NCBI GenBank assembly: GCA_043758205.1
Contig: JAYVNY010000153.1
Span: 1 to 24,966, forward strand
Reading direction: 5' to 3'
DNA: 24,966 nt
DNA from: Akkermansia sp.
GTDB taxonomy: Bacteria; Verrucomicrobiota; Verrucomicrobiia; Limisphaerales; SIBH01
A program made the translations under genes and the position numbers. Within the stretch, counting starts at the first letter, position 1, and each line of letters opens with the position of its first letter. This document shows, one piece after another, positions 2,405 to 24,804 of this stretch. The notes beneath the pieces are model-generated. The model searched no databases. It was given only the letters and a program-made list of their open reading frames with translations, and was not told where the DNA came from.

Positions 2405-2541
2405 CCCCCTCACCCCAGCCCTCTCCCCAGGGGAGAGGGAGCCACCGCATCCAGTCTTTAGAGCAGGCGTGGCGTCCCGATTTGTCGTGGCGCGGAAGGC
2501 CGCTCTCCCTCTCCCGGCGGGAGAGGGCCGGGGTGAGGGGG
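2405..2541. repeat. Composite GC-rich palindromic element: two inverted 35-nt hairpin modules around a 67-nt spacer
   Basis: Module A (2405-2439) is ccccctcaccccagccctctccccaggggagaggg. Module B (2507-2541) is ccctctcccggcgggagagggccggggtgaggggg. Apart from one mismatch and the short loop region, the reverse complement of B matches A. Each module has its own ccctctccc/gggagaggg hairpin. The outer 12 nt (2405-2416 and 2530-2541) are perfectly complementary. The element translates to the repeat-derived peptide LTPALSPGERE in the raw ORFs. Confidence 0.88.
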
Positions 2542-6431: not shown

Positions 6432-6489
6432 ATACCGCCGCCGCGTTTTCTCAGTTGCAGACTTTTACTCCAGCGGCTCAAATTTTTCC

Positions 6490-7443: not shown

Positions 7444-7569
7444 CCCACCGGGCGGTCGTGGAACCGCCTCCGCCACGCCCTTTCCCGGGAATTAGTGCGA
7501 ACGGTTCGTTGCTTCAAGCTCCGCCTTCGCGCTAGGCTTCCTGACCGGGGACACAACCCGAAAACTCGC

Positions 7570-9586: not shown

Positions 9587-9662
9587 TGGTGGAGCCTAGG
9601 GGATTCGAACCCCTGACCCCCACAATGCCATTGTGGTGCTCTACCAACTGAGCTAAGACCCC
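9587..9662 (-). tRNA. tRNA-Ala (anticodon GGC), CCA encoded
   Basis: The reverse complement folds as ggggtct ta gctc agttggta gagc a ccaca atGGCat tgtgg gggtc agggg ttcgaat cccct aggctcc a cca. All four stems pair. The G3:U70 alanine identity pair is present. Length is 76 nt. Confidence 0.92.
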
Positions 9663-9674
9663 AACCGGGCGGCG

Positions 9675-9703
9675 AAGGTATGGAGGTGCGCGGAGGTTGT
9701 CAA
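9675..9703 (-). promoter_or_regulatory. Putative sigma70-type promoter of tRNA-Ala
   Basis: On the minus strand TTGACA (9703-9698) is followed by a 17-nt spacer and TACCTT (9680-9675). The hexamer ends 12 nt upstream of the mature tRNA 5' end. The same TTGACx/TACCTT pair occurs upstream of tRNA-Gln. Confidence 0.35.
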
Positions 9704-9780: not shown

Positions 9781-11316
9781 TCAACGCTGCGCGGTGACGC
9801 GGTCGGGCGCGTTCAAGCTGTGGAGCGCATTGAGCGAATCCGTGGCGCGGCTCGCCTGGGTCAGCAAAGGCTGAGGATACACCCCGATAAAAACGATCCC
9901 CGCCATGCAGACAAGCAGCGCAAGTTTTGTCGCCAGGGGAACATTGATGGAGGAAACTTCCGCTGAACCGTCCGACCAGTAAATCGCCCGCACCACGCCG
10001 AAGTAGTAGTAGAGCGAGATGACCACGCCCACGATGGCCACGCCCGCGAGCCAGTAATAACCGTGGTTCGTCGGGCCTTGTTCCACGATGGATTTGAGCA
10101 AAAGAAACTTGCCGAAGAAACCGGCCAGCGGCGGAATGCCCGCCAGGGAAACCATCGCCAGCGTCATGGCCGTGGCGAGGAAGGGCGAACGGCGGTTCAG
10201 TCCGACGAGATTGCTCACGTCGTCCGTCTCGGTCTGCCGCGAGACCACCGCGATGACGGTGAAGGCGGCGATGACGGTGAACAGATAGCCGGTGAGGTAA
10301 TAAACGATGGCGGTGGAACCCGCACGGGTCAGGGCGGCAAAACCCATCAGCAGATAACCCGCGTGGGCGATGCTGGAGTAGCCGAGCAGGCGCTTGAGGT
10401 TGCGCTGCGGAATGGCGCAGAGGTTGCCGTAGAGAATGGTGAGCGCCGACAGTACCATGAGAAATTTTTCCCAATGCAGCGTGATGTCCGGCACCGCCGT
10501 GAACAGCACGCGCAGCAGCAGCACGATGCCGGCGGCCTTCGATCCAACGGCGAGGAACGCGGTCGTGGGGGCGGGCGAACCTTGATAAACGTCCGGCGCC
10601 CAAATCTGGAACGGCACCATCGCAATCTTAAAACCAAGTCCCGCCATGATGAGCAGCACACCCGCGATCAGCGTCTTCGGCACGGCGTTGTGCTCGCTCA
10701 CATACTTCACGTATTGCGCGAGATCGGCAAAGTTCATGCCGTTCAACGCCGTGTTCGCGACGGTCGTGGTCGCCGTGCCATAAACCAGCGCAATGCCGAA
10801 CACCGTGAACCCGGTCGAGAGTCCGCCGATGACGAGATACTTCACGCCCGCTTCCAGCGACTGCACCTTGCTGCGCTGAAAACTCGTCAGCACGTAGAAC
10901 GTCACGGTGATGAGTTCGAGCGAAACGAAGAGCAGCACGAAGTCATTCGCTGATGAGGCGAACATCATGCCCGAAAGCGCGAAGAGGATGAGCGAGTAGT
11001 ATTCCGAAATGCCCGCCTCGATGCGGTCGGCAAACTCCGCCGCCATGATGAGCACAAGCACGGCGGCAACGAGAAAGAAGCGTTTGAAGAACAGGGCCAG
11101 CGGATCGAGCACGTAGCTTTTCCCAGCGGCGAACTGGGCGTCGCCAAGACTCGTGAAGAAACTGCTGAACGAGCAGGCGAAAATTACGGCCACGATCAGC
11201 GCGGCGGCGTAGCCGAGCTTGCGCTTGTGCTCGGGGGCCGTCCACAGGTCGAGCAGCAGAATGCCCAAGCCGGCGAGGACCACCGCGATTTCGAGACTCA
11301 TCAGGGAAGCGTTCAT
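9781..11316 (-). CDS. nuoN: NADH-quinone oxidoreductase subunit N
   Basis: A 511-aa polytopic membrane protein of the Mrp-antiporter-like fold. Family-typical stretches include GLSTGFTVFGIALVYG, PFQIWAPDVYQGSPAPTTAFLAVGSKAAG and LLGYSSIAHAGYLL. It is the last gene of the nuo string. Confidence 0.93.
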   Translation of the reverse strand: MNASLMSLEIAVVLAGLGILLLDLWTAPEHKRKLGYAAALIVAVIFACSFSSFFTSLGDAQFAAGKSYVLDPLALFFKRFFLVAAVLVLIMAAEFADRIEAGISEYYSLILFALSGMMFASSANDFVLLFVSLELITVTFYVLTSFQRSKVQSLEAGVKYLVIGGLSTGFTVFGIALVYGTATTTVANTALNGMNFADLAQYVKYVSEHNAVPKTLIAGVLLIMAGLGFKIAMVPFQIWAPDVYQGSPAPTTAFLAVGSKAAGIVLLLRVLFTAVPDITLHWEKFLMVLSALTILYGNLCAIPQRNLKRLLGYSSIAHAGYLLMGFAALTRAGSTAIVYYLTGYLFTVIAAFTVIAVVSRQTETDDVSNLVGLNRRSPFLATAMTLAMVSLAGIPPLAGFFGKFLLLKSIVEQGPTNHGYYWLAGVAIVGVVISLYYYFGVVRAIYWSDGSAEVSSINVPLATKLALLVCMAGIVFIGVYPQPLLTQASRATDSLNALHSLNAPDRVTAQR

Positions 11317-11317
11317 C

Positions 11318-11710
11318 TTATTCCAAACTGGCGACGTGCCGGTATCTTCGGATGCGGGTATCCGTCGTTACGACCGGACAATTGTTCAACCGAGCCTGCG
11401 CCACCACGAGCCGGTCAATGGGATCCTCGTGGAAATCCACGGGTAGCTTATCGGCGGCTTCGATGAGCGCCACGCCAATCGGAATTACCGACCAGTTGAA
11501 CCGGGCCACATGAAACTGAAACCATTCCGGCCACAAGCGGTCCAACTGGAGCCGCTGTCGGCGCACGGCGCAGGCGATTTCCCACGCGCTGGCCGCCAGT
11601 ACCTCCACCTCCGCCGCCGGGTCTTCGAGATCGCGACGGACTGCTTCGCTCAATCGCTGCGGCGTGAGCGAGAGAAAGATGACGGCGCAGGTATCCAGGA
11701 CAAATTTCAC
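11318..11710 (-). CDS. vapC: PIN-domain toxin (VapC family)
   Basis: The GTG at 11710 overlaps the antitoxin stop (GTGA). The four PIN acidic positions are present: VLDTCAV, SAWEIA, PIDRLVV and VTTDTR. The stop TAA at 11318-11320 lies 1 nt before the nuoN ATG at 11316. Confidence 0.85.
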   Translation of the reverse strand: MKFVLDTCAVIFLSLTPQRLSEAVRRDLEDPAAEVEVLAASAWEIACAVRRQRLQLDRLWPEWFQFHVARFNWSVIPIGVALIEAADKLPVDFHEDPIDRLVVAQARLNNCPVVTTDTRIRRYRHVASLE

Positions 11711-11958
11711 GGGAAGCTTTTGCCGGTGAGCATGTCCCAATCGCCTTCAGGGATGAGCGGCTCATCCAGAGGGCCGAGAATTTTTCCGGTGCCAGTCCCG
11801 CAACCGAACTTGGTCCGGTTTCGCTTTTCCGCCATCGGAACCAGTTTCGCGACGGGCACGCTTTCCTTCGTCAGCACGACCTCGTCCCCGCGTTGCACGT
11901 CGGCGAGGTATTCCGCGAGGTGGCTTCCGAAATCGGCAATGGTGGCGGTCTTCGTCAT
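11707..11958 (-). CDS. Phd/YefM-type antitoxin
   Basis: An 83-aa protein. The N-terminus MTKTATIADFGSHLAEYLADVQRGDEVVLTKESVPVAKLVP matches the Phd/YefM pattern (xxFxxxLxxxLxxVxxGxxVxITxxGxPVAxLVP). It overlaps the downstream PIN gene by 4 nt. The ATG lies 12 nt after the nuoM stop. Confidence 0.78.
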   Translation of the reverse strand: MTKTATIADFGSHLAEYLADVQRGDEVVLTKESVPVAKLVPMAEKRNRTKFGCGTGTGKILGPLDEPLIPEGDWDMLTGKSFP

Positions 11959-11970
11959 GGCGGCAGCGTA

Positions 11971-13560
11971 TCAGTGGGGCGGGGCGACAGCGAGCGCGGG
12001 TTGCGCCGTGCTGGCCACCTTCTTCGGCGCATTGGCCGGATTGGCCATCGGCGATTTGCCATTGGTCATCGCCACGATCTCCTTCACCGCTGGTTCAATC
12101 TTGCTCGTGAGCAAACGTGGCGCGATGCCGAAGAGCAGCAGCGCCACGATGAGCAAGGCGAACGGAACCTTGCGCCACAGGCTGGCGTCCTGAACGGCGG
12201 GCAATCCTTCCGCCGCCGGGCCGTGCAGGATGTTCCGCACCGCGCGCAGCATGTAGATGGCGCCCACGACCAGTGCGCCCCACGCAGCGACGACGACGAA
12301 GGGTGAAAGAGTTTTCCACGCGCCGAAGAGGGTGAGCAGTTCACCGGCGAAATTCGCGAAGCCCGGCAGGCCGCAGCCCGCCATCGCGGCCATGATGAGT
12401 GCGGTGCCGATGAACGGCATCTTCTTGAGCAGGCCACCGAGCTTGCTGATTTCCAGCGTGCCGGTCTGCTCGTTCAAGTAGCCGCTCAGGCCGAAGCTCA
12501 ACGCCGCGAGCAGACCGTGCGCGATCATCACGACCACCGTGCCAGTGATGCCGATGACGCTCAGGCTGGCAAGGCCGAGAAAACAAAAGCCCATGTGCGC
12601 CACGCTGGAATTGCCGAGCAGGAAATTGAAATCGCGCTGACGCATCGCCACCCAGCCGCAGTAAAGAATGTTGCCGAGCGCGAGCCACGCGATGAGATGC
12701 AGGTGCGCTTTGGCGACATCGGGCGCGAAGGGAATCGCGATGCGAATGAGACCGTAGAGTCCAAACTTCTTCAGCACGCCCGCGTGCAGCATGGCCGTGG
12801 CGGCGGGCGCGGAGCCGTAGCCGAGGGGAGCCCAGGTGTGGAACGGAAACAGCGATACGAGAATGCCGAAGCCGAAAAGCAGCAGCGGGAAGACGACCAT
12901 CTGCGAGGAGACGGACAGCGGCGTGGTTTTCAGAAACGCCGTGAGTTGCACGAGATCGAACGTGCGCAGGCCGGACTGGAGGTAGAGCGCGATGAGGCCC
13001 ATCAACGCGATGAGCGCCCCGATGCTGAGATACATCGTGATCTGGAAGGTCGCGTAGGTCTTCTGCTCACCGCGTCCCCACACGCCGATCATGATGAACG
13101 TCGGCACCAGCGCGAGTTCGTGGAACGCGTAGAAGAAGAACAGGTCGAGCGACGCGAACGCGCCGAGGATGCCGCCAATCATCACCAGCAGCAGCACGTA
13201 GAACATCTTGACCTGCTTTTCGATGCGGTGCGACACGCACGTCGCAGCGAAGGCGACGATGGCACCCATCAAAATCAGCCCGACGTTGATGCCGTCCACT
13301 CCGACGTGGAAATTCATGCCCAAAGCCGGAACCCAATCAACCAACTGCGTAAATTGGTAATTGCCATGAAGTGTCGCGTGTTCCGCTGAAGGCGCAAACA
13401 TTGGGTCGAACTTCGCAAACATCACCACGGCCAGAACCATCGACGCGAACGTGCTGACCAAAGCGACGATGCGGATGGCGAAGCGATACTCGCGCGGAAT
13501 CAACGCCACGATCAGCGCTCCGAGGAACGGTGCCAGGATGATGTAGGTGAGGAGCGACAT
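11971..13560 (-). CDS. nuoM: NADH-quinone oxidoreductase subunit M
   Basis: Polytopic antiporter-like subunit. Family-typical stretches include FFFYAFHELALVPTFIMIGVWG, PFHTWAPLGYGSAPAATAMLHAGVLKKFGLYGL and LGNSSVAHMGF. The ATG at 13560 lies 1 nt after the nuoL stop and is preferred over the upstream alternative at 13575. About 40 aa at the C-terminus form a low-complexity tail. Confidence 0.92.
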   Translation of the reverse strand: MSLLTYIILAPFLGALIVALIPREYRFAIRIVALVSTFASMVLAVVMFAKFDPMFAPSAEHATLHGNYQFTQLVDWVPALGMNFHVGVDGINVGLILMGAIVAFAATCVSHRIEKQVKMFYVLLLVMIGGILGAFASLDLFFFYAFHELALVPTFIMIGVWGRGEQKTYATFQITMYLSIGALIALMGLIALYLQSGLRTFDLVQLTAFLKTTPLSVSSQMVVFPLLLFGFGILVSLFPFHTWAPLGYGSAPAATAMLHAGVLKKFGLYGLIRIAIPFAPDVAKAHLHLIAWLALGNILYCGWVAMRQRDFNFLLGNSSVAHMGFCFLGLASLSVIGITGTVVVMIAHGLLAALSFGLSGYLNEQTGTLEISKLGGLLKKMPFIGTALIMAAMAGCGLPGFANFAGELLTLFGAWKTLSPFVVVAAWGALVVGAIYMLRAVRNILHGPAAEGLPAVQDASLWRKVPFALLIVALLLFGIAPRLLTSKIEPAVKEIVAMTNGKSPMANPANAPKKVASTAQPALAVAPPH

Positions 13561-13561
13561 G

Positions 13562-15499
13562 CTATTTGAGAACAAGAATCAGCACCAAGGCTACGCCGAG
13601 CGCGAAGAGGAAGGCGTAGGTCTGGAGATTGCCGGTCTGCACCATGCGCAGGGCGCGGCCGAAAATTTCCGTGCTGCCATGCACGCCGCGCACGCCGAGT
13701 CCGGCGATGATCCAACGGTCGAACCAATCAGCCAGTTTTGAGAGCGCCTCGTGCGTCACGGAGATGAGCGCGGAGTAAAGTTCGTCGAAGTAAAAGCGGT
13801 TCTGCATGGCGCGCGAGAGCCAGCCGAGCTTGGTGACGAGCGGATCCTTGGTCGCGTTCCAGTAGGTCGCGTAGGCCAGGCTGATGCCAACGAGCGCGGC
13901 GAGAATGCCGAACATCGCGGCGAGCAGGTTGTGGCCGAAGGGTTGCAGCAGTGACTCAATCCAGCCGCCGTGGTGCGCTTCGCCGGTAACAAACATTTTA
14001 CCGACAAAGACTTCAATGCCAATGAAGCCGCCGATGACGGAGAACACCGCGAGGATGATGAGCGGCGTGGTCATCACCTTCGGCGATTCGTGGGCGTGTC
14101 CGGCAGCGTCGCTTTTGGCCGGGCCGAAGAAGACTACGAAGAGCAAACGGAACATGTAGAACGCGGTGAGCGCGGCGACGAAAACAGCGACGGCGAACAG
14201 AATCGGTTTGTGCTCAGCGGCTTGCGCAAGAATCGAGTCTTTCGAGTAGAAGCCCGCCAGCGGCCAGATGCCGGCTAGCGCGAGCGTGCCGAGCAGGAAG
14301 GTCTTCCAAGTGACGGGCAGTTTGTGACGGAGCGCGCCCATTTTCCAAATGTCCTGCTCGTGGTGCATGGCGTGAATCACGGAGCCGGCCCCGAGAAACA
14401 GGAGCGCCTTGAAGAACGCGTGCGTGGTCAGGTGGAACATCGCGGGCGTCGGCCCGGCGAGACCGACGGACATGACCATGTAGCCGAGTTGCGAGAGCGT
14501 GGAGTAGGCGAGGATGCGCTTGATGTCGTTCTGTTGCACCGCGATGAGGGCGGCGAGCAGCGCGGTGAAGCCGCCGATCCACGCGATGACATCGAGCGCG
14601 GTCCAGCCGTTCATGAAGGCCATCGCCTCCGGCCACACGGTGCTGGAGCCGAAGATGAAGAACACGCGGCAGAGCATGTAAACGCCCGCGGCCACCATCG
14701 TCGCGGCGTGGATGAGCGCGGAGACGGGCGTCGGGCCTTCCATCGCGTCCGGCAGCCAGACGTGGAGCGGGAACTGCGCGGACTTGCCCATCGCGCCGCA
14801 GAAGATCAGCAGGCCGATGACGTTGATCCAGATGCCCAACTGTTCAGGATTGTTGGCCAGCTTCAATTGCAACGCATCGAAGTTCACGAGGCCGTTCGTC
14901 GCGGTCCACAACATGATGATGCCGATCAGAAAGCCAAAGTCGCCGAGACGGTTCGTGATGAAGGCCTTCTTCGCCGCGTCGCCTGCCGACGGTTTCTCGT
15001 ACCAGAAGCCGATCAGCAGGTAGCTGGAAACGCCGACGAGTTCCCAGAAGATGAACATCATCACGAAGTTGTTCGCGAGGACGATGCCGAGCATCGAGAA
15101 GGTGAACAGGCTCAGGCAGGCGAAGAAGCGCGAGAAGCCCGGGTCTTCGCGCATGTAGCCGTAGGAGTAGATGTGAATCATCAGGCCCACGCCGGTGACG
15201 ACGTGCAGCATCATCAGACTGAGCGCATCGAGGCGCAGGCCGATGTCGATCTTCAACTGATCGCCGCCGGGAAGTCCGACCGAGAGCCAGCCGAACGGCG
15301 TCGCCTCGATGCCTTTCGCCAAATCAATCCCCTGCAAACCGAAGAGCAGCACCAGCGTGATGACCAATCCCGCGCCAATCGCCCCGATCGAAATTAGTGC
15401 GCTGAGGTTCTTCGCGCGTTGCGTGAACAGGGCGATGACCACCGCCGCCGCGAGTGGCAGCAGCAGGACCAGCCAGGCCAGATTTTCCGGGTTGTCCAT
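13562..15499 (-). CDS. nuoL: NADH-quinone oxidoreductase subunit L
   Basis: The ATG at 15499 shares one base with the nuoK stop (TAATG). The N-terminus is [25 protein letters not shown]. Family-typical stretches include FIFWELVGVSSYLLIGFW, GKSAQFPLHVWLPDAMEGPTPVSALIHAATMV and LAYSTLSQLGYM. The ORF-track extension to 15934 reads through nuoK in another frame. Confidence 0.93.
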   Translation of the reverse strand: MDNPENLAWLVLLLPLAAAVVIALFTQRAKNLSALISIGAIGAGLVITLVLLFGLQGIDLAKGIEATPFGWLSVGLPGGDQLKIDIGLRLDALSLMMLHVVTGVGLMIHIYSYGYMREDPGFSRFFACLSLFTFSMLGIVLANNFVMMFIFWELVGVSSYLLIGFWYEKPSAGDAAKKAFITNRLGDFGFLIGIIMLWTATNGLVNFDALQLKLANNPEQLGIWINVIGLLIFCGAMGKSAQFPLHVWLPDAMEGPTPVSALIHAATMVAAGVYMLCRVFFIFGSSTVWPEAMAFMNGWTALDVIAWIGGFTALLAALIAVQQNDIKRILAYSTLSQLGYMVMSVGLAGPTPAMFHLTTHAFFKALLFLGAGSVIHAMHHEQDIWKMGALRHKLPVTWKTFLLGTLALAGIWPLAGFYSKDSILAQAAEHKPILFAVAVFVAALTAFYMFRLLFVVFFGPAKSDAAGHAHESPKVMTTPLIILAVFSVIGGFIGIEVFVGKMFVTGEAHHGGWIESLLQPFGHNLLAAMFGILAALVGISLAYATYWNATKDPLVTKLGWLSRAMQNRFYFDELYSALISVTHEALSKLADWFDRWIIAGLGVRGVHGSTEIFGRALRMVQTGNLQTYAFLFALGVALVLILVLK

Positions 15500-15804
15500 T
15501 ACAGTTTCATGGAGGTCAGGTCTTCGGTGTGCGCGGACTGGCGCTTGCGATAGAGCGCGACAATCAGCGCTAGGCCGACGGCGACTTCCGCCGCCGCGAC
15601 GGTGATGATGAAGAAGACCATGATCTGACCGTTCAGGTTGTTGTTGAAACGCGAGAAGGCGACGAGCGCGAGGTTCGAGGCGTTGAGCATGAGTTCGAGG
15701 CCCATGTACATGACCAGCAGGTTGCGCCGCAGGATGACGCCGAGCACGCCGAGGCTGAACAGCAGCGCGCTCACGACGAGATAATGTTCGAGAGTTACGG
15801 TCAT
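15499..15804 (-). CDS. nuoK: NADH-quinone oxidoreductase subunit K
   Basis: A 101-aa protein with three TM segments. [28 protein letters not shown] and [11 protein letters not shown]...[15 protein letters not shown] are typical NuoK blocks. The ATG at 15804 is chosen because upstream codons are repeat-adjacent and non-homologous. Confidence 0.9.
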
Positions 15805-15888
15805 GCGCGAAAAAGATTCCGGTTGCCCAATGCGTGGTGATCGAGAAAACGCGTGCCGCACATTGCAGTCTCAGCGCTGAAGACGCGT

Positions 15889-16034
15889 GATTCGACAGCC
15901 CAGGGCAAAGCCCTGGGTCGCGGTTGCAAAACATGGTTCAGCCCTGAAGGGGCGGGACAAAGTTGTTTTGCCCTTTCAGGGCTGGCCACAAATCGGAATA
16001 CGCCACCCAGGGCTTTGCCCTGGGCTATCGAATT
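15889..16034. repeat. 146-nt triple-hairpin palindromic element in the nuoJ-nuoK gap
   Basis: H1 is cccagggcaaagccctggg (15899-15917). H2 is cagccctgaagggg...ccctttcagggctg (15939-15984). H3 is cccagggctttgccctggg (16006-16024), the exact reverse complement of H1. The outer flanks ttcgacagcccagggc and gccctgggctatcgaa also pair with one mismatch, so the whole unit is an imperfect palindrome. Confidence 0.85.
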
Positions 16035-16084
16035 GCGCCCCGTTGGGGCTGGTGGCATGGGCTGAAATGGTTCGCGGCGGATTT

Positions 16085-16585
<501 letters not shown>

Positions 16586-16588
16586 GTC

Positions 16589-17161
<573 letters not shown>

Positions 17162-17209
17162 TTCGATTTTCTCGCGACTGCCGCCTCGCGGTGCGTTTGC
17201 CTCAAACCG

Positions 17210-17831
17210 CTCTCATTAGCACCCGGCTTTAGCCGGGTGTGAGCGTCGCGCGTCGAGGGAAACCGTTTCAACGGTTTTCCTCCGGATGCCAGACCAAGCC
17301 ATATTTCTCGACCAACAACTTCAATTCTTCCGTGAAGTTTCTCCTGCGATGGTGCTCTTCCTGATTCGCGATGTAGCCACCGACCTCCTCGACTCCCGAG
17401 TGCGAAACCGAGAACGCGCCGTAGCCGCGCTGCCAGGCAAATTTGCCCGGAACCAGATTGCTTTCGTTCACCCAGTGTGACGAGCCGCCCTTGAGCAGTT
17501 GGAGCACTTCCTCGACGGGCCGGGTGACGGGCAAATCGATCAACGCGTGAACGTGATCCACGTTCACGTAGTTGATACGCATGTAGATGCCCTTCTCCTT
17601 GGCATACTCGTACAGGTGCGCGGAGAGTTTCGCGGCGGCAGGCGGGGCGAGAAGTGGACGACGCCCCAGCGTGGCCCACGTCAGGTGCAGCCAGCTGCGG
17701 CAATAAGAATGGAGCGGCATGGGGCGTCATCCTTTCTTGGTCGAGTTGTGGGCGGAATGAGAAGCCGCTAAAGCGGCTGAAAACTCACGTGCGGATGGAG
17801 TCACCCGGCTAAAGCCGGGTGCTAATGAGAG
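17210..17831 (-). mobile_element. RAYT/IS200-like gene bracketed by perfect 30-nt inverted REP hairpins
   Basis: ctctcattagcacccggctttagccgggtg (17210-17239) is the exact reverse complement of cacccggctaaagccgggtgctaatgagag (17802-17831). Each copy contains an 8-bp GC stem with a tetraloop. Additional hairpins lie at 17258-17280 (ggaaaccg/cggttttcc) and 17763-17778 (agccgc taaa gcggct). Confidence 0.85.
17268..17720 (-). CDS. IS200/IS605-like Y1 (HUH) transposase, REP-associated (RAYT-like)
   Basis: A 150-aa protein. The HUH motif is VDHVHALI. The C-terminal GGYIANQEEHH matches the catalytic-tyrosine helix (YIxNQxxHH) of Y1 transposases. The size and the flanking REP hairpins fit a RAYT. Confidence 0.85.
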   Translation of the reverse strand: MPLHSYCRSWLHLTWATLGRRPLLAPPAAAKLSAHLYEYAKEKGIYMRINYVNVDHVHALIDLPVTRPVEEVLQLLKGGSSHWVNESNLVPGKFAWQRGYGAFSVSHSGVEEVGGYIANQEEHHRRRNFTEELKLLVEKYGLVWHPEENR

Positions 17832-17851
17832 AGGAACTGGAAAGTACGTCA

Positions 17852-18976
17852 TCATTTCGTCGTGCCTGTCGTGAACCACAGCACAATGGCGGTGAGCAAA
17901 ATATTCACCAGCGCTAGCGGGATGAATCTGCGCCAGCCCAGATCCATCAATTGATCGTAACGGAAGCGCGGGAGCATCCAACGCACCCAGATGATCAGGA
18001 CCATGAACGCCAGCAGCTTGCCCAGGAAGATTCCGATGTGCGCGAGTCCCATCGGGATGCTCGTCGCGGGTTGATCGAGTCCCGCGAAAGGCAGCGTCCA
18101 GCCGCCGAAGAACAGCACGACCATCATCGCCGACACCGCGACCATCGCCGCGTATTCGCCCATGAAGAACAGGCCGAAGCGCATCGAGCTGTATTCAGTG
18201 TGATAACCGCCGACGAGTTCGGTCTCGGATTCCGGCAAGTCAAAGGGCAGACGGTTCGTTTCCGCGAACGCCGCCACGAGGAAAATGCAGAACGAGAGGA
18301 AGGTGCAGGGCCAGAGCACGTAGCTCTGCCACGTCTGCTCGCTCGCCATGAACGGCAACGCGAACCAGCCAAACTTTGCCTGATAGGCGATCACTTCACT
18401 GAGGTTCAACTGCCCGACGAGCATGAAAATTGGGATGACCGACATGCCCATCGAAAGCTCGTAGGAAATCATCTGCGCGCTGGAGCGGATGCCGCCGAGG
18501 AACGGATACTTCGAGTTCGACGCGTAGCCCGCGAGCACGATGCCATAGACCGCGAGCGACACGATGCCGAACGTGTAGAGGATGCCGACGTTCAAATCGG
18601 CGATGACCATGCGCTGATTGCCGAGATTTGAGCCGAAGGGAATCACCGCCACCGTCATGAGCGCGGGAATCATCGCGATGGCGGGCGCGAGGGAAAAATA
18701 GATTTTGCGCACCCCCGCCGGCGTAAAGTCTTCCTTGAGGATGAACTTCAAGCCGTCCGCGAGCGGTTGGAAAATGCCGAGACTGATCAGGAACGGGCCG
18801 ATGATCGGAACCTTGGCGAGCAACGGCGGTGCCGTGCGGTTCGGTCCCACGCGATCCTGAATCCACGCCGAGATTTTGCGCTCCGCCAGCACCGCGTAGG
18901 CGACGATGGGCATGACCGCGAGGAAGATCACCGCGAGGATCTTCACCAGACTCCAAATGACAAAGTTCCAGTCCAT
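17852..18976 (-). CDS. nuoH: NADH-quinone oxidoreductase subunit H
   Basis: A 374-aa polytopic protein. Typical blocks are AERKISAWIQDRVGPNR, FQPLADGLKFILKEDFTP, AETNRLPFDLPESETELVGGYHTEYS and FFMGEY. The ATG lies 4 nt after the nuoG stop. Confidence 0.93.
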   Translation of the reverse strand: MDWNFVIWSLVKILAVIFLAVMPIVAYAVLAERKISAWIQDRVGPNRTAPPLLAKVPIIGPFLISLGIFQPLADGLKFILKEDFTPAGVRKIYFSLAPAIAMIPALMTVAVIPFGSNLGNQRMVIADLNVGILYTFGIVSLAVYGIVLAGYASNSKYPFLGGIRSSAQMISYELSMGMSVIPIFMLVGQLNLSEVIAYQAKFGWFALPFMASEQTWQSYVLWPCTFLSFCIFLVAAFAETNRLPFDLPESETELVGGYHTEYSSMRFGLFFMGEYAAMVAVSAMMVVLFFGGWTLPFAGLDQPATSIPMGLAHIGIFLGKLLAFMVLIIWVRWMLPRFRYDQLMDLGWRRFIPLALVNILLTAIVLWFTTGTTK

Positions 18977-18980
18977 CGCG

Positions 18981-20681
18981 TCAGATTTGCACCGTTACGC
19001 CGGTGTCGCCGAGTGCGGCCCAGGTCACGCCGTTGAAGCCCGGCACTTCCTTCGCCATCTGGTTGAACAGACCTTCGATGCTCACGAAGCCGTTCTGGCC
19101 TGTGACGCTGTGAACCAGCTCGTGCAGGAATTCCCACTCGGGTCGCGCATCGCCGCGCGGCTCGACGGCTTTCGTGAAACGCTGCACGCGGCCTTTGATG
19201 TTCGTGAACGAACCGCGCTTCTCGGCGTGCGCGCAGCCGGGCAACAGGTAATGCGCCGCCTCAGTCGTCTTGTTCGGCAAAATGTCGCTGACGATGAGCG
19301 TGTCGAGTTTCGCCAGCAAGTCGGCGCCGAGGCCATGCTTGGTAACGTCTTCACCGAAGACGATGAGTGTCTTGATTTTGCCCGCACGAATGCCGTCCGC
19401 GATCTTCGGGAAGTTGCGGCCCATCTCGGCGTGGCAATCCACGATGCCGGTCAGAATCGCGCCGTTGGTGTTCGGGTTCTTGTCGGCCACGACAAGCAGC
19501 TTGTCCGCTTCACCATTGCGCGGGACAGAATCAGTGATCGCATCCAGCTTGGTCGCAAGTTTTTTGAGCAGGAACAACTCTTCGTTGGTCTGGCGTGCCG
19601 AGGCAACGATGGCCACGGAGCCAGCAGCAGCTTTGCGCAACAATTCAGAAATCTCACCAAGCGCAGAATTCCAACCAGCAACCTTCAACTTTGAACCAGC
19701 CACCTTCGTCAGCCGCTTGTCGCTGCCGATCCATTTATAGTTCAGCCGCCCCGCGTCGCACATCCACGTCGCGTTCACCGCGTCATTCTCGCGCGGTTCG
19801 TAGCGATAGACTTTGTCCTCGCGCGACCCCATGACCGTGTTGCAACCGGTGCCGCAGCTTGTGCAGAGGCTCTTGGTTTCCTTGAGAAACCACACGCGCA
19901 TCTGGAAACGAAAATCCTTCGACGTGAGCGCGCCCACGGGACAGATGTCCACGGTGTTGAGCGTGTAGTTGTTGTCGAACGGCTGGCCGGGGAACGCGGA
20001 GATGGTGTTGTAGCTGCCGCGGTTCACGATGCCGAGCGCGTCATCGCCCGCGACGTCTTTGGTGAACCGGATGCACCGCGTGCAGAGGACACAACGCTCG
20101 GCGTCGAGCACTATGCGCGGCCCGAGATCGATGCGCTTGGGTTTGTGAACCTTCACCTCGACGAAGCGGCTCTGCGCCTGGCCATAATCGACCGAATACT
20201 CCTGGAGCTTGCACTCGCCGGCCTGATCGCAAATCGGGCAGTCGAGCGGATGATTGATGAGCAGCGATTCGAGCACGCCCTCACGCATCTGCTTCACGCC
20301 CGGAGTGGTCGTGTAAATCTCCATGCCCGGCGAAATCGGCGTGGCGCAGGCGATGGCGGGGCGCGGCGACTTGGCAATCTTCGGCGAGCCGTCTTCGTTG
20401 AGCAGCGGCTTGCGATCCGGTCCCATCGCCGGCGTGCCGAACTCGACGAGGCACATGCGGCAGTTGCCTGCGACCGGCAGCTTCGGATGATAGCAGTAGT
20501 GCGGCACGTCGATCTTCGCGAGTGCCGTGACCTGAATCATCGTGGTCGCCACCGGCTTGCCCGTGACCGGATCGGGCATCGTCTTCGGCACGGCGATGGC
20601 CTTGCCATCCACCTTCACGGTGATGGTTTCGACCGCCGGCGCGGCGGGCTTCGGTTCAGTTGTGGCTGCGGTGGACATCAT
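18981..20681 (-). CDS. nuoG: NADH-quinone oxidoreductase subunit G (short form, 566 aa)
   Basis: The N-terminal 2Fe-2S region reads VDGKAIAV...HYCYHPKLPVAGNCRMCLVE. Further clusters are HPLDCPICDQAGECKLQ and CVLCTRCIRF...CPVGA. A molybdopterin-oxidoreductase-like domain follows. The ATG at 20681 overlaps the stop of the upstream Uma2 gene (TAATG), and a second ATG lies at 20678. Confidence 0.9.
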   Translation of the reverse strand: MMSTAATTEPKPAAPAVETITVKVDGKAIAVPKTMPDPVTGKPVATTMIQVTALAKIDVPHYCYHPKLPVAGNCRMCLVEFGTPAMGPDRKPLLNEDGSPKIAKSPRPAIACATPISPGMEIYTTTPGVKQMREGVLESLLINHPLDCPICDQAGECKLQEYSVDYGQAQSRFVEVKVHKPKRIDLGPRIVLDAERCVLCTRCIRFTKDVAGDDALGIVNRGSYNTISAFPGQPFDNNYTLNTVDICPVGALTSKDFRFQMRVWFLKETKSLCTSCGTGCNTVMGSREDKVYRYEPRENDAVNATWMCDAGRLNYKWIGSDKRLTKVAGSKLKVAGWNSALGEISELLRKAAAGSVAIVASARQTNEELFLLKKLATKLDAITDSVPRNGEADKLLVVADKNPNTNGAILTGIVDCHAEMGRNFPKIADGIRAGKIKTLIVFGEDVTKHGLGADLLAKLDTLIVSDILPNKTTEAAHYLLPGCAHAEKRGSFTNIKGRVQRFTKAVEPRGDARPEWEFLHELVHSVTGQNGFVSIEGLFNQMAKEVPGFNGVTWAALGDTGVTVQI

Positions 20682-21388
20682 TACTTTCCAGCAATCTTTT
20701 TCACGAATGCGGTGTGCTCCGCGCTGCGCAAACCTTTGTCGAGGACCGTCGAGACGCGGCGATGTTCGCCGGCCAGCAAGGCGCGGAGATCGAGCCAGAG
20801 TCCCGGAAATACCTGGCTGCAATGCACGCCGTCGTGGCGCGGCTTGAGCGCGACGTACGCCCCGTCGCGCAACGTCCACCAGTCCAACCGTGCATCCAGC
20901 ACCCGCCAGAGCAAATACTCCTGCACGCCCAGGCGCTCGTACACATCGCGCTTCTCGTGCGAATCGTAGTCACTGCTGCTGACGGCGACTTCCGCGACGA
21001 GTTCGGGCGCGCCTTCAATGTAGTTGTCCGCAGAGATTCGAGAGCGGCCCAGCGCGGGCGATTCGATGCGTAAAAGGCAGTCGGGTTGGAATTCGTTTTT
21101 GTTGTCGAGACGGACGGATGGAGTGATGCGTGAAACCACGCCCGCCGTTTCGGAAGCGTAGCGGGCAAGATAGAGGAAGACATCGTTGTGCGATCCACTG
21201 TGCATCTCACTGGTCGGTGGTGGCATAAAGACAATCCCCTCAATCAACTCCGCGCGCCGCAGGTGGGGCATCGCATCCCAACGCCGTTCAAATTCGACGC
21301 GAGACAGATGATCGCCGTTGCACAACGGAGCCACCGCCGGCTTGGCGGGCTTGGACATTTTTGCTTTGTTGAGTGTGGCGGTGCTCAT
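20681..21388 (-). CDS. Uma2-family (DUF820) PD-(D/E)xK putative endonuclease
   Basis: AELIEGIVFMPPPTSEMHS, FQPDCLL and APELVAEVAVSSSDYDSHEKRDVYERLGVQEYLLWRV match the Uma2 pattern (ELIxGxxxMxP, PD, PxLVxEVxS...D...K...Y...GVxEYW). The putative D/E/K catalytic residues are intact. The start is 21388 or the internal ATG at 21358. Confidence 0.8.
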   Translation of the reverse strand: MSTATLNKAKMSKPAKPAVAPLCNGDHLSRVEFERRWDAMPHLRRAELIEGIVFMPPPTSEMHSGSHNDVFLYLARYASETAGVVSRITPSVRLDNKNEFQPDCLLRIESPALGRSRISADNYIEGAPELVAEVAVSSSDYDSHEKRDVYERLGVQEYLLWRVLDARLDWWTLRDGAYVALKPRHDGVHCSQVFPGLWLDLRALLAGEHRRVSTVLDKGLRSAEHTAFVKKIAGK

Positions 21389-21397
21389 GCGTGCAGC

Positions 21398-22837
21398 TTA
21401 CGTGCTTTGCGGACTCGCTGCGATCTTCAAATCTTGTGTCGGGCCAGCGCCGCTTTTGGGGCGACGCGCTTCGTCCGCCGCTCCTTTGGCGATGAACTCG
21501 TCTTTGAACTTCCCGACAAAACTTTGCACGGGCCACGAACAGGCTTCGCCGAAGGCGCAGATGGTGCGGCCGCCGGGAATGTTGTTCGCGATGCCGAGCA
21601 GGTAATCCGCGTCGCTCTTGCGGCCTTCGCCATGCGAAAGGCGATGGAGCGCCTTCGACATCCAAAGCGAGCCTTCGCGGCAGGGCGTGCATTGGCCGCA
21701 ACTCTCGTGCGCGTAAAACTCGGCGATGTTCGCCAGCGCCTCGACGATATCGACCGAGTCGTCCATCACGATGATGGCGCTGGAGCCGGACATCGAGCCG
21801 GCGGCGGCGAGCGAGTCGAAGTCGTAGGGCAGGTCGAGCATGTCGGTTTCGACCTCGGTCGTGGTGCCGTCCGCGCCTTTCTTCTTGAGCTTGAATTTCT
21901 CGCCGGCCTTGAAAACTTTTGCGGATGAACCGCCGGGGATGACCGCCTTCAACTTGCGGCCGTCGCGCAGACCGCCGCCGAAGTCCGCGTGGAAGATCAG
22001 TTCACCAATCGTGACCTTGCCGACTTCGATTTCGTAATAGCCCGGCTTCTTCACGTTTCCGCTCAGGCTCACGATGCGCGTGCCGGTGTTGTTCGGTGTG
22101 CCGAGCTTCGCGAACGCGCCCGCGCCCATCTCGACGATGTGCTTCACGTTGCAGAGCGTCTCGACGTTGTTGACGATGGTCGGGCACATCCACAGGCCGA
22201 GGATGGCCGGGAAATACGGCGGCTTGATGCGTGGGTAGGGCCGCTTGCCTTCGAGCGATTCAATCAGGCCCGTTTCTTCGCCGCAGATGTAAGCGCCGGC
22301 GCCGCGATGCACGTGCATTTCCAAATCGAAGCCGCTGCCAAGGATGTTCTTGCCGAGGAAGCCCTTCGCGCGCACCTCCTTCAACGCGCGATTCAAAATG
22401 CGCGCACCCTCGGGCATCTCGCCGCGAATGTAGATGTAGGCCAGCTTCACGTCGTTCGCGAAGCACGAGATGATCATACCCTCGATCAACTGGTGCGGAT
22501 CTTTGTGGATGATCTGGCGGTCCTTGAACGTCCCCGGCTCGGATTCGTCCGCGTTGCAGATGAGGTAAATGGGCTTGCCGCTGCGGCGATCCACGAACGA
22601 CCACTTGAGTCCGCACGAGAAGCCCGCACCGCCACGGCCGCGCAGCCCCGACGCCTTGACGTCTTCGCGGATGACTTCCTGCGGGGACAGCTTCTTGCCG
22701 TCCGGCAAATCCTTCGGCGCAGTCGCGAGCGCCTTCTTCAAGCCCTCGTAGCCGCCGTGACGTAGGTAGCACTCGAGGTCATTCGAGTAGCCGGCGGCGT
22801 CGGCGTGCTTGAGAATGAGGCGAAATTGCTCGGGCAT
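21398..22837 (-). CDS. nuoF: NADH-quinone oxidoreductase subunit F (FMN/NADH-binding, 4Fe-4S)
   Basis: GLRGRGGAGFSCGLKW is the FMN/NADH site, followed by CNADESEPGTFKDR. ESCGQCTPCREG is the N3 cluster. About 35 aa at the C-terminus form a low-complexity tail. Confidence 0.95.
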   Translation of the reverse strand: MPEQFRLILKHADAAGYSNDLECYLRHGGYEGLKKALATAPKDLPDGKKLSPQEVIREDVKASGLRGRGGAGFSCGLKWSFVDRRSGKPIYLICNADESEPGTFKDRQIIHKDPHQLIEGMIISCFANDVKLAYIYIRGEMPEGARILNRALKEVRAKGFLGKNILGSGFDLEMHVHRGAGAYICGEETGLIESLEGKRPYPRIKPPYFPAILGLWMCPTIVNNVETLCNVKHIVEMGAGAFAKLGTPNNTGTRIVSLSGNVKKPGYYEIEVGKVTIGELIFHADFGGGLRDGRKLKAVIPGGSSAKVFKAGEKFKLKKKGADGTTTEVETDMLDLPYDFDSLAAAGSMSGSSAIIVMDDSVDIVEALANIAEFYAHESCGQCTPCREGSLWMSKALHRLSHGEGRKSDADYLLGIANNIPGGRTICAFGEACSWPVQSFVGKFKDEFIAKGAADEARRPKSGAGPTQDLKIAASPQST

Positions 22838-22846
22838 ATCAGCGTC

Positions 22847-22874
22847 TTGACTCAGGAATGAAACTCCCTACCTT
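22847..22874 (+). promoter_or_regulatory. Putative sigma70-type promoter of tRNA-Gln
   Basis: TTGACT (22847-22852) is followed by a 16-nt spacer and TACCTT (22869-22874). The hexamer ends 16 nt upstream of the mature tRNA 5' end. The hexamer pair matches the one upstream of tRNA-Ala. Confidence 0.35.
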
Positions 22875-22890
22875 CTCGCGGCTCTGGCAC

Positions 22891-22964
22891 TGCCCGATGG
22901 TGTAACGGTAGCACAAGCGACTCTGAATCGCTTTGTCATGGTTCAAATCCATGTCGGGCAGCCA
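22891..22964 (+). tRNA. tRNA-Gln (anticodon CTG), CCA encoded, antisense to the nuo operon
   Basis: It folds as tgcccga tg gtgt aacggta gcac a agcga ctCTGaa tcgct ttgt catgg ttcaaat ccatg tcgggca g cca (74 nt). U1:A72 and G73 are the features known for bacterial tRNA-Gln. The T-loop TTCAAAT and the D-loop GG occur only in the plus orientation. Confidence 0.88.
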
Positions 22965-22966
22965 AT

Positions 22967-23503
22967 TCATTTGCACTTCCCCAAAATCTCGTCTGCCTTC
23001 GCATTTGAGACGCCTTCGTAAAAATCCTCGTTGCACATCATCACCGGGGCGGTCCCGCAGCTTGCGAGGCATTCGACAAATTCAACCGTGTATTTGCCGT
23101 CCTTCGTGGTTTGCGGGCCGTGCGCGTGGGAATTCAGCCCCAGGCGCGAGCAGAAATGTTCGTGCAGTTCGCCGGAGCCGCCGAGCGCGCAGCTCAATGT
23201 GCGGCAAACTTTGAGGTGATGCTTCCCCACCGGCGCGCGTTGCAGCATCGGATAGAAGGTCACGATCTCGTAGATGTTGATTGGTGAAAGTCCGAGCTTC
23301 TTCGCCGCCCAAGTCACGGACTCCTGCGGAATCCAGCCGTGCGCCTCTTGGATGGCGTGCAGCACCATGAGCGAGGCGGCGCGTGCCTTGTCCGCGGGAT
23401 AATGCGTGAGCAACTCGGCGACTTCCGCTTCGAGCGCGGGCGTGGGTTTCCACGTCGGGTCGGGCCGAAGCTCATTCGGGATTGGATCGAAGTGCTCGCT
23501 CAT
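22967..23503 (-). CDS. nuoE: NADH-quinone oxidoreductase subunit E (2Fe-2S)
   Basis: YEIVTFYPM is present. The cysteine pattern KVCRTLSCALGG ... VECLASCGTAP gives Cx4C...Cx3C. The ATG overlaps the nuoD stop (ATGA). Confidence 0.93.
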   Translation of the reverse strand: MSEHFDPIPNELRPDPTWKPTPALEAEVAELLTHYPADKARAASLMVLHAIQEAHGWIPQESVTWAAKKLGLSPINIYEIVTFYPMLQRAPVGKHHLKVCRTLSCALGGSGELHEHFCSRLGLNSHAHGPQTTKDGKYTVEFVECLASCGTAPVMMCNEDFYEGVSNAKADEILGKCK

Positions 23504-24804
23504 CGGTCACACTCTCCCATCACGAAATCAATCGAGCCGAGGATGCTCACCACGTCGCTCATCATGTGGCCGGGCAGCACATGCGACATGATGCTCAGGT
23601 TGCAGAAGGACGGCGCGCGAATCTTCAGCCGATACGGCGTACCGCCGCCGCGTGAGTTGATGTAGAAGCCCAGCTCGCCCTTCGGATTCTCCGCGCCGAA
23701 ATAAATTTCTCCGGGCGGTGCGTTCACGCCCTGCGTCACGTTGATGAACTGATGAATCAGTTCCTCCATGCTCGTCAGCACTTTGCTTTTCGGCGGCAAC
23801 GTCACCTTGCCATCCGCGATGTTCACCGGCTCCTGGCCTTCGTTATCCGCGCCGCCGGGAATGCGGTCGAGGCACTGGCGCACGATGCGCACGCTCTGGC
23901 GCATCTCTTCCATCCGCACGAGGTAGCGGTCGTAGCAGTCGCCGACCGAGCCGATGGGCACCTCGAACTCCAAATCCTTGTAGATGAGATACGGGTTGGC
24001 CTTGCGCACGTCGTAGTCCACGCCGCTGCCGCGCAGGTTCGGGCCGGTCAGTCCGTAGTCAATCGCGTCCTCCTTCGAGATGACGCCGACATCGCGCGTG
24101 CGATCCACGAAGATGCGATTGCGCGTGAGCAGCGTCTCCGACTCATCGAAGTTCACCACCACTTCGTCGCAGAACTTCCGCACCGCCGCGACCCAGCCCG
24201 GCGGCGTGTCGCGCGAAACGCCGCCGATGCGCGTGTAGCTCGTGGTGAACCGCGCGCCGGTCAGCGCCTCGAACAAGTTGTAGAGCTTCTCGCGTTCCGT
24301 GAACGTGTGCATGAACACGGTCAGCGCACCCACGTCCATCGCATACGCGCCCAGCCCGAGCAGATGCGCCGAGACGCGCGCCAGTTCGCAGCAGATCACG
24401 CGGATGTATTGGCAGCGCGGTGGCAGCTTCTGGTCAATACCCATCAGCTTTTCCACGGCCAGCGCGTAAGCCACGTTGTTCGCCAGCGGCGCGAGGTAAT
24501 CCAGTCGATCCGTGTACGGGATGAACTGGGTGTAAGTCATGTTCTCGGCGATTTTCTCGTCGCCGCGATGCAGGTAGCCGACATCGGGAATCGCCTTCGT
24601 GATGATCTCGCCATCCATCTCCAGCACGATGCGCAACACACCATGCGTGGACGGATGCGACGGTCCCATGTTAAGGACCATCTTCTCGCCTTCCATGTCG
24701 CCGGGCTGATTCTGCAACTCCGGCGCGACGACGCCCTGCTGCGCGTCCGCCGCGGCGATCCGCGAAGGCGCGTCACGAAAAGTGATTTCCTGGGTCGTGG
24801 CCAT
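23500..24804 (-). CDS. nuoD: NADH-quinone oxidoreductase subunit D
   Basis: Typical blocks are LNMGPSHPSTHGVLRIVLEMDGEII, GYLHRGDEKIAE and DRLDYL. The C-terminus reads PGHMMSDVVSILGSIDFVMGECDR. The ATG at 24804 directly abuts the nuoC stop. Confidence 0.95.
   Translation of the reverse strand: MATTQEITFRDAPSRIAAADAQQGVVAPELQNQPGDMEGEKMVLNMGPSHPSTHGVLRIVLEMDGEIITKAIPDVGYLHRGDEKIAENMTYTQFIPYTDRLDYLAPLANNVAYALAVEKLMGIDQKLPPRCQYIRVICCELARVSAHLLGLGAYAMDVGALTVFMHTFTEREKLYNLFEALTGARFTTSYTRIGGVSRDTPPGWVAAVRKFCDEVVVNFDESETLLTRNRIFVDRTRDVGVISKEDAIDYGLTGPNLRGSGVDYDVRKANPYLIYKDLEFEVPIGSVGDCYDRYLVRMEEMRQSVRIVRQCLDRIPGGADNEGQEPVNIADGKVTLPPKSKVLTSMEELIHQFINVTQGVNAPPGEIYFGAENPKGELGFYINSRGGGTPYRLKIRAPSFCNLSIMSHVLPGHMMSDVVSILGSIDFVMGECDR

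Follow-up and report, generated by a model that had tools for sequence, protein, structure and literature searches.

A tRNA-Gln(CUG) gene with its own predicted promoter on the opposite strand between nuoE and nuoF in a clade of Verrucomicrobia

RESULTS

The DNA analysed in this study, a stretch of 24,966 nucleotides (nt) from an assembly deposited as Akkermansia sp. and placed in the Limisphaerales of the Verrucomicrobiota (GCA_043758205.1, contig JAYVNY010000153.1, positions 1 to 24,966), is referred to below as the window. It carries a cluster of genes for respiratory complex I, and a tRNA-Gln(CUG) gene lies within this cluster, between nuoE and nuoF, on the strand opposite to both. The genes nuoD to nuoN follow the canonical order at 9781-24804 and are all located on the minus strand. 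Pfam matches were obtained for nuoD, nuoE, nuoF, nuoG, nuoH, nuoI, nuoJ and nuoL; nuoK was recognised by its translation, and nuoM and nuoN by the size and position of their open reading frames (ORFs) only. The features of the nuoE-nuoF junction are compiled in Table 1.

Table 1. Features of the nuoE-nuoF junction of the window and of the comparator tRNA gene
Feature	Position	Strand	Evidence
nuoE (stop codon TGA, 22967-22969)	22967..23503	-	Pfam PF01257 (2Fe-2S_thioredx), E 2.8e-44
nuoF (start codon ATG, 22835-22837)	21398..22837	-	Pfam PF01512 (Complex1_51K), E 6.7e-46; PF10589 (NADH_4Fe-4S)
nuoE-nuoF intergenic region, 129 nt (tRNA gene, leader and promoter)	22838..22966	.	Sequence, ORFs
tRNA-Gln(CUG) gene	22891..22964	+	ARAGORN, Rfam RF00005, stem covariation among relatives
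-35 box TTGACT of the predicted tRNA-Gln promoter	22847..22852	+	Conserved in 166/166 distinct upstream regions
-10 box TACCTT of the predicted tRNA-Gln promoter	22869..22874	+	Position and spacing conserved in relatives
Speculative candidate TGcTACCGT (extended -10 geometry, antisense of the tRNA D-arm)	22905..22913	-	Read from the sequence
Comparator tRNA-Ala(GGC) (9587-9662) with promoter TTGACA-N17-TACCTT (9675-9703)	9587..9703	-	ARAGORN, Rfam, pattern scan

The tRNA gene and its neighbours

Two tRNA genes were called in the window by ARAGORN, and the one in the nuoE-nuoF intergenic region was identified as tRNA-Gln with the anticodon CTG. Rfam family RF00005, for which the gathering score is 29 bits, matched 22891-22961 over model positions 1 to 71 of 71 with 62.9 bits and an E value of 1.1e-11. 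The anticodon (22923-22925) lies in a 7-nt loop, and CCA is encoded at 22962-22964. The 3' end of the gene is located 2 nt from the nuoE stop codon, the two genes being convergent, and its 5' end is located 53 nt from the nuoF ATG. Only 9 to 10 nt separate this ATG from the -35 box of the tRNA promoter, a divergent arrangement with overlapping control regions. The N terminus of NuoF could be aligned from residue 1 in relatives, and the minus strand of the intergenic region is the sole possible 5' untranslated region of nuoF. A consensus scan of 22300-23600 revealed no terminator-like site near the tRNA gene on either strand. The initial annotation of this DNA, made from the sequence of the window, had placed the gene correctly, as ARAGORN, Rfam and the ORFs agree on its position, on the 2 nt to nuoE and on the 129-nt intergenic region.

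The tRNA has U1:A72, G2:C71, G10 and the discriminator G73 (22961), with C:G at position 3:70. Among 177 copies collected from relatives, 21 sequence variants were found. Of the two glutamine identity features named in the initial annotation, U1:A72 was invariant in all 21 variants, but G73 was not universal, A73 being present in 6 of them. On the cloverleaf 99.8% of the stem cells were paired, and two-sided (compensatory) changes occurred in 8 of 21 stem pairs; examples are AGCGA/TCGCT versus GCAGA/TCTGC in the anticodon stem and CATGG/CCATG versus CTAGG/CCTAG in the T stem. None of 500 shuffled controls reached the observed values, and controls in which the cloverleaf was slid along the sequence paired in 30 to 44% of the cells.

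The predicted promoter is of the sigma-70 type and consists of TTGACT and TACCTT separated by 16 nt (22847-22874). It had been proposed near the nuoF start from the window alone, and the comparison with relatives bore this out. TTGAC starts 39 to 45 nt upstream of the tRNA in all of the 166 distinct upstream regions (TTGACT in 158), and a TAnnnT follows after 16 nt in 165 regions and after 17 nt in the remaining one, while the nucleotides between the two boxes and inside the -10 box vary freely. On both strands of the 25-kb window the pattern TTGAC-N17-19-TAnnnT has two matches, with 0.33 expected; these lie upstream of tRNA-Gln and of tRNA-Ala, each with TACCTT. The tRNA-Ala(GGC) gene, the only other tRNA gene of the window, is located directly after nuoN on the nuo strand. 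A scan of 22300-23600 with a consensus rule of at least 4 of 6 matches per hexamer gave no promoter. Both tRNA promoters were missed by this strict rule because TACCTT matches TATAAT at 3 of 6 positions, and the clade-derived pattern was used instead.

Because the changes in the stems are compensatory and the promoter is kept in all 166 distinct upstream regions, the tRNA-Gln(CUG) gene is regarded as functional and under selection, with a promoter of its own, as its high scores in both tRNA searches also indicate; the initial annotation had likewise judged it not to be a relic. It would be transcribed towards nuoE from this sigma-70-type promoter; on the other strand, the promoter overlaps the region in which nuoF translation starts. 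Transcription would start near 22881, and a 5' leader of about 10 nt would be removed by RNase P.

Distribution among relatives

Two sets of loci were compiled. A NuoE protein search with one genome per species yielded 80 verrucomicrobial loci, and a search of metagenome contigs with the tRNA-Gln sequence alone yielded 120 contigs; individual loci are designated by L numbers. The in-clade set comprised 59 species-level genomes with a NuoE at least 62% identical to that of the window. They are labelled Pedosphaera, Limisphaerales, Verrucomicrobia subdivision 3 or similar, and some records are evidently misnamed. In 56 of the 59, ARAGORN found tRNA-Gln(CTG) between nuoE and nuoF on the opposite strand. 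It is also present in a 57th genome (L030), partly masked by a run of N. In the two remaining genomes the contig stops inside an insert (L007), or toxin-antitoxin-like genes follow nuoE and no nuoF is within reach (L056). A tRNA at this junction was found in none of 21 outgroup loci from Chthoniobacterales, Opitutales and Coraliomargarita (NuoE 44 to 55% identical), in which nuoE and nuoF are spaced by 2 to 63 nt. Since the layout occurs in the in-clade genomes and in none of the outgroup loci, we regard it as a derived character, ancestral to one order-level verrucomicrobial clade of the Pedosphaera/Limisphaerales type. Conservation at the junction, a point raised with the initial annotation, was thus found in 57 of 59 species genomes of the clade.

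The contigs retrieved with the tRNA alone led to the same locus. Of these contigs, 73 extended 800 nt or more beyond the 5' end of the tRNA, and all 73 had nuoF next to it; 50 extended 2 kb or more beyond the 3' end, and nuoE lay on that side in 46. Among all 120 contigs no other genomic context of this tRNA-Gln sequence was found. For the cultured relative Limisphaera, 46 tRNA genes in total are stated in PMC7193930. As no other context appeared and the cultured relative has only 46 tRNA genes, the data suggest a single genomic location for tRNA-Gln(CUG), and the gene is probably present as a single copy. Whether the window holds the only copy had also been asked at the outset, and the answer is likely to be yes.

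It is scarcely credible that the gene is a pseudogene, a relic or cargo recently brought in by a mobile element, without a long-term role at this site. The scars which mobile elements left in the tRNA flank of some relatives (see below) would suit such an origin, but the gene scored highly with ARAGORN and Rfam, its stem changes are compensatory, its promoter is invariant, it occupies the same site in 57 of 59 species genomes, and in the window neither a repeat nor an integrase lies beside it. This explanation was considered refuted by covariation, promoter conservation and the synteny survey.

Spacers and insertions on both sides of the tRNA gene

The distance from the 5' end of the tRNA to the nuoF ATG was 44 to 59 nt in 71 of 157 loci, which places the start codon just a few nt from the -35 box of the opposite strand, and ranged from 44 to 661 nt overall. 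Longer spacers were of two types. The first contained an ORF on the nuo strand starting beside the -35 box and ending at most 23 nt from the nuoF ATG, and the second had no coding sequence but contained hairpins or tandem repeats of heptamers. Towards nuoE, the 2-nt junction noted in the initial annotation is correct for the window, but only about a quarter of the relatives share it: 2 to 3 nt were measured in 15 of 54 species genomes, in addition to the window. Other distances were 5 to 155 nt, and the overall range was 2 to more than 1700 nt.

The heptamers repeated in tandem were AAATCGT, TTCACGT, GTCACTC and TTCAACG, and they occurred in the nuoE-tRNA or the tRNA-nuoF spacer of relatives (for example L013 5537-5562, L030 2395-2420, L099, L100 and L106). 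The repeats often stood directly before the nuoF ATG and sometimes formed inverted arrays giving long hairpins. They recall the STRR heptamer repeats of cyanobacteria. The motif is absent from the window.

An insert of about 600 nt, referred to as the cassette, recurred between nuoE and the tRNA in 34 of 177 loci (for example L004 5544-6137 and L008 5539-6132), with an ORF of about 200 amino acids (aa) on the nuo strand. In 8 of 15 species genomes the stop codon of this ORF was located 2 nt from the tRNA, the sequence being AAATGA followed by AT (AC or CT in two). The product matched no family in Pfam, NCBIfam or PADLOC, and its match in the PDB to a putative nucleotidyltransferase was non-significant (E 0.047). 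The first third of the cassette contains a second reading frame, conserved in 39 loci and with a product of 60 to 73 aa, which would reflect either two overlapping genes or a frameshift. Other inserts after nuoE were PIN-domain genes with an ATG overlapping the nuoE stop codon, and an ATPase gene. All ORFs inserted after nuoE were on the nuo strand, and several overlapped the nuoE stop codon as ATGA. To judge from their orientation and spacing, the ORFs inserted on both sides of the tRNA appear to keep an operon-like continuity.

In four contigs no nuoE was present upstream of the tRNA (L115, L128, L152 and L195). L128 carries beside the tRNA, on the tRNA strand, an ORF with a tyrosine-recombinase-like C terminus (6148-7602, minus strand), together with HigB/HigA-like ORFs. 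The match of this ORF to Pfam PF00589 (E 2.9e-4, 21.1 bits) was below the cut-off of 27.1 bits, and there was no NCBIfam match. L115 and L195 contain remnants of the same ORF, and L152 contains unrelated opposite-strand genes in place of nuoE. In L090 a 48-nt direct repeat of the 3' part of the tRNA (1551-1598), 932 nt away, brackets an insert with a PIN gene. In some metagenome relatives the complex I cluster is thus physically split at the tRNA.

tRNA genes are well-known attachment sites for integrative islands and prophages. The integrase-like ORF at the tRNA 3' end in L128 and the 48-nt repeat in L090 resemble such islands, and the 3' flank of the tRNA appears to be an insertion or attachment hotspot in relatives, where small accessory genes or islands were repeatedly taken up. 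The window itself differs in having no integrase, repeat or insert. No tyrosine recombinase gene was found in it beside the tRNA 3' end, where nuoE abuts the tRNA, and the 3' segment of the tRNA has no second copy in the window. When viral contigs were searched for a phage attachment site, they gave no match to the 3' half of the tRNA.

Expression of nuoF to nuoN

A nuoF promoter cannot fit into the stretch that separates the tRNA promoter from nuoF or from the ORFs inserted in front of this gene. The nuoF mRNA must therefore start in or beyond the tRNA gene and include, as a minimum, antisense RNA of the tRNA promoter and of the leader. According to the initial annotation, any RNA reading through from nuoE to nuoF contains a perfect antisense copy of the tRNA. 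For the promoter region this follows from the geometry, and RNA of the nuo strand that reaches nuoF most probably carries the antisense of the whole tRNA as well; the promoter found in L152, described next, agrees with this.

A relaxed promoter scan of 154 loci revealed no consistent promoter on the nuo strand but only scattered, non-homologous weak matches. The same scan detected the tRNA promoter in 173 of 177 loci. The strict pattern matched the nuo strand 8 times in 1.43 Mb, and the match in L152 alone was relevant. This strong predicted promoter, TTGACT-N17-TAAGGT (2429-2457, plus strand), lies past the tRNA at a distance of 53 nt and is directed through the tRNA gene at nuoF, as expected if transcripts running across the tRNA gene are the normal source of nuoF expression. 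In 9 of 169 loci a terminator-like site on the nuo strand was located no more than 200 nt from the tRNA 3' flank.

Two other indications were discarded. Large hairpins in L012, L029 and L033 had been taken as terminators specific for the tRNA strand, but a systematic scan of the 169 loci gave 21 sites on the tRNA strand versus 9 on the nuo strand, with L029 and L033 scoring on the nuo strand, and no clear bias was apparent. Contig ends at the tRNA were likewise rejected as transcript ends; assemblies break at this 74-nt sequence, which is common to co-occurring strains.

In the reading we favour, though our judgement of it is evenly divided, nuoF to nuoN would be served by read-through from nuoE across a head-on, independently transcribed tRNA gene that was fixed as a frozen accident. 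The opposite-strand position of the tRNA-Gln gene, with nuoE on one side and nuoF on the other, would go back to the common ancestor of the Pedosphaera/Limisphaerales-type Verrucomicrobia, where it became fixed, and would have been retained since. Transcripts of the nuo strand would cross it in antisense to express nuoF to nuoN. In the window, those that reach nuoF most likely continue from nuoE, and the complex I cluster would remain an operon-like unit; the missing space for a promoter ahead of nuoF, the lack of a terminator and the coupled inserts are indirect evidence for a single polycistronic transcript. The arrangement may persist because neither the tRNA nor either of its neighbours can be dispensed with and because very little DNA lies between the tRNA and nuoF. 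Head-on encounters of tRNA and nuo transcription would then be an unavoidable side effect and not a dedicated regulatory device.

Several observations weigh against read-through from nuoE. In L115, L128 and L195 the tRNA and nuoF are kept with a spacer of 49 to 59 nt despite an island that separates nuoE from them and that has the integrase-like gene on the tRNA strand, and no strict promoter pattern was found upstream on the nuo strand in these three contigs. This combination fits better with a promoter close to nuoF that lies outside the scanned patterns. The region up to 5 kb upstream of nuoE, where the nuoA promoter is expected, also gave no match to the strict pattern on the nuo strand. 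The ordinary mRNA promoters of the clade are evidently outside this pattern, and the missing match for nuoF is therefore weak evidence. Read-through against a strong tRNA gene without a terminator should furthermore lower nuoF to nuoN relative to nuoA to nuoE, which is awkward for a stoichiometric complex. Finally, the link between tRNA and nuoF is found in 100% of cases but that between nuoE and tRNA can be broken, an asymmetry that could reflect a functional tie.

The main alternative, suggested by the three island-bearing contigs, is that of two complex I units. The first, nuoA to nuoE with any cassette, would end at the tRNA by collision or termination, and nuoF to nuoN would be transcribed from a promoter of their own located antisense in the tRNA or in its immediate 3' flank. 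We consider this possible, at well under an even chance. It would explain why the three island-bearing contigs keep an intact, full-length nuoF behind the unchanged short spacer despite kilobases of inserted DNA that include opposite-strand genes, and why the linkage is 73 of 73 contigs for tRNA and nuoF versus 46 of 50 for nuoE and tRNA; these contigs may, however, be recent or minority variants. A candidate for such a promoter is TGcTACCGT, an extended -10-like sequence on the minus strand (22913-22905) from which transcription would start near 22898. No other TAnnnT is present on the nuo strand from the nuoE stop codon to the nuoF ATG. The hexamer of the candidate is weak, however (3 of 6 matches), and is a by-product of the conserved D-arm sequence. 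The 154 loci contained no consistent sigma-70-like match on the nuo strand in a scan that finds the tRNA promoter in 173 of 177 loci, and the new promoter of L152 lies beyond the tRNA and not inside it.

A possible regulatory or RNA-processing role

The layout might also have been selected as a device for regulation or RNA processing, in which RNase III acts on a duplex of the tRNA or its precursor with the nuo mRNA, tRNA-processing enzymes cleave the mirror image of the cloverleaf in the mRNA, as in mitochondrial tRNA punctuation, or occupancy of the growth-rate-controlled tRNA promoter gates the passage or the initiation of transcription of nuoF to nuoN. We hold this to be unlikely. RNase III processing and coupling by transcriptional interference, together with a separate promoter of nuoF to nuoN, had been put forward as possible consequences in the initial annotation. 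A device would be in keeping with the conservation of the layout throughout the clade, with the overlap of the tRNA promoter and the nuoF start region at a preferred distance of 44 to 59 nt, and with the cloverleaf-like structure into which the antisense RNA folds. The fold has -38.5 kcal/mol, but with a z score of -0.86 it is not unusually stable, and it lacks a proper T-arm. The arm in the place of the T-arm, the mirror of the D-arm, has 3 pairs, since U13:G22 turns into an A-C mismatch there.

Moreover, the spacers of 2 to more than 1700 nt to nuoE and of 44 to 661 nt to nuoF show that no precise geometry is kept. Mechanisms that need an exact geometry with nuoE are argued against by these variable spacers and by the inserts that flank the tRNA on either side. 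A mature tRNA has a tight fold and is a poor partner for pairing in trans, and for this reason RNase III cleavage of a duplex of tRNA and nuo mRNA is unlikely. Regulatory interference is possible in principle, as the footprint of RNA polymerase on the tRNA promoter would cover the nuoF start, but a finely tuned interference device would hardly go with spacers that vary on both sides.

In its most far-reaching form this explanation would make the tRNA-Gln gene and its promoter a conserved control point. Transcription of nuoF to nuoN would start antisense inside the tRNA or would have to pass the tRNA promoter, firing of this growth-rate-controlled promoter and expression of the distal genes would be mutually exclusive on each DNA molecule, and the antisense tRNA would be the point at which the nuo mRNA is split. 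We see only a small chance that this is so.

Other features of the complex I cluster

A gene for a putative endonuclease of the Uma2 family (20681-21388, minus strand; Pfam E 7.7e-26) is located between nuoF and nuoG. It also matched the candidate defence family PDC-S03 of PADLOC (E 1e-13). The gene starts 9 nt past the nuoF stop codon, and its own stop codon overlaps the nuoG ATG; homologues are present at the same junction in L041 and L057. A 190-aa ORF (17158-17730, minus strand), which overlaps the nuoI start as ATGA, lies between nuoH and nuoI; it had no match in Pfam, NCBIfam or PADLOC. The 280-nt gap between nuoJ and nuoK (15805-16084) contains a compound inverted repeat with arms at 15872-15922 and 16001-16051 and an inner hairpin at 15939-15984. 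Two copies of CCCAGGGCnnnGCCCTGGG, which is absent from the rest of the window, occur in this gap. Rfam assigned an Acido-Lenti-1 RNA to 16006-16050 on the plus strand, opposite to the nuo genes, with 43.3 bits.

DISCUSSION

The tRNA itself resembles the canonical bacterial tRNA-Gln(CUG) genes, such as glnV and glnX in the metT tRNA operon of E. coli, in its standard cloverleaf, in U1:A72, G2:C71, G10 and G73, in the encoded CCA and in the sigma-70-type promoter. Unlike these, it is solitary and located on the opposite strand between genes for respiratory subunits, it has C:G at position 3:70, and A73 is found in some relatives.

The location has a parallel in the mitochondria of vertebrates, where tRNA-Gln is encoded on the light strand between ND1 and ND2. 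In both cases a tRNA-Gln gene on the opposite strand separates two complex I subunit genes, so that the transcript of the mRNA strand contains the mirror of a tRNA. In mitochondria, however, processing relies on flanking sense tRNAs (Ile and Met), according to the tRNA punctuation model reportedly put forward by Ojala, Montoya and Attardi in 1981, and both strands are transcribed in full from distant promoters. The tRNA of the window has an adjacent promoter of its own and no flanking sense tRNA. The resemblance is positional and not homologous.

Interrupted complex I clusters are also known from Paracoccus denitrificans and Rhodobacter capsulatus, the nqo/nuo clusters of which contain unrelated reading frames. 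The Uma2 gene and the ORF between nuoH and nuoI of the window are comparable, being foreign ORFs on the same strand among the nuo genes. The interruptions in Paracoccus and Rhodobacter, in contrast to the tRNA, are co-oriented protein genes, and no tRNA gene on the opposite strand with a promoter of its own is known to us from these clusters.

Overlapping units on opposite strands are known to give rise to transcriptional interference, to form excludons and to undergo trimming of sense/antisense pairs by RNase III. One example that depends on RNase III is given in PMC3181467. The junction described here shares with such systems a convergent pair (tRNA and nuoE) and a face-to-face pair (tRNA promoter and nuoF start) within 129 nt. 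It differs in that the antisense partner is a stable, structured tRNA and not an mRNA or a long antisense RNA, and the overlap is here implied by geometry only. A full-text literature search gave no report of a tRNA gene inside a nuo operon. A self-promoted tRNA gene on the opposite strand between nuoE and nuoF, present throughout a clade, appears to be an unusual variant of operon organisation for which no earlier description was found. Taken together, the feature is real and functional and was fixed long ago. The most economical reading, to which we give about half of our confidence, would be a frozen accident in which head-on transcription is tolerated.

The genes of complex I operons are commonly taken to form uninterrupted units of one orientation, and NuoE and NuoF together make up a tight subcomplex. 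If the arrangement is a frozen accident and nothing else, it would be a curiosity of genome organisation. If the tRNA and its promoter were a control point, it would be a bacterial counterpart of mitochondrial tRNA punctuation, tying respiration to translational capacity. In either case a probably essential tRNA between nuoE and nuoF would offer a natural test case for whether head-on transcription is tolerated or used inside an operon with balanced output. The insertions in relatives suggest that a core respiratory cluster can harbour a tRNA attachment site and has been split repeatedly by mobile elements. For the poorly cultured verrucomicrobial lineage in which it occurs, the nuoE-tRNA-nuoF junction would provide a clean synteny marker.

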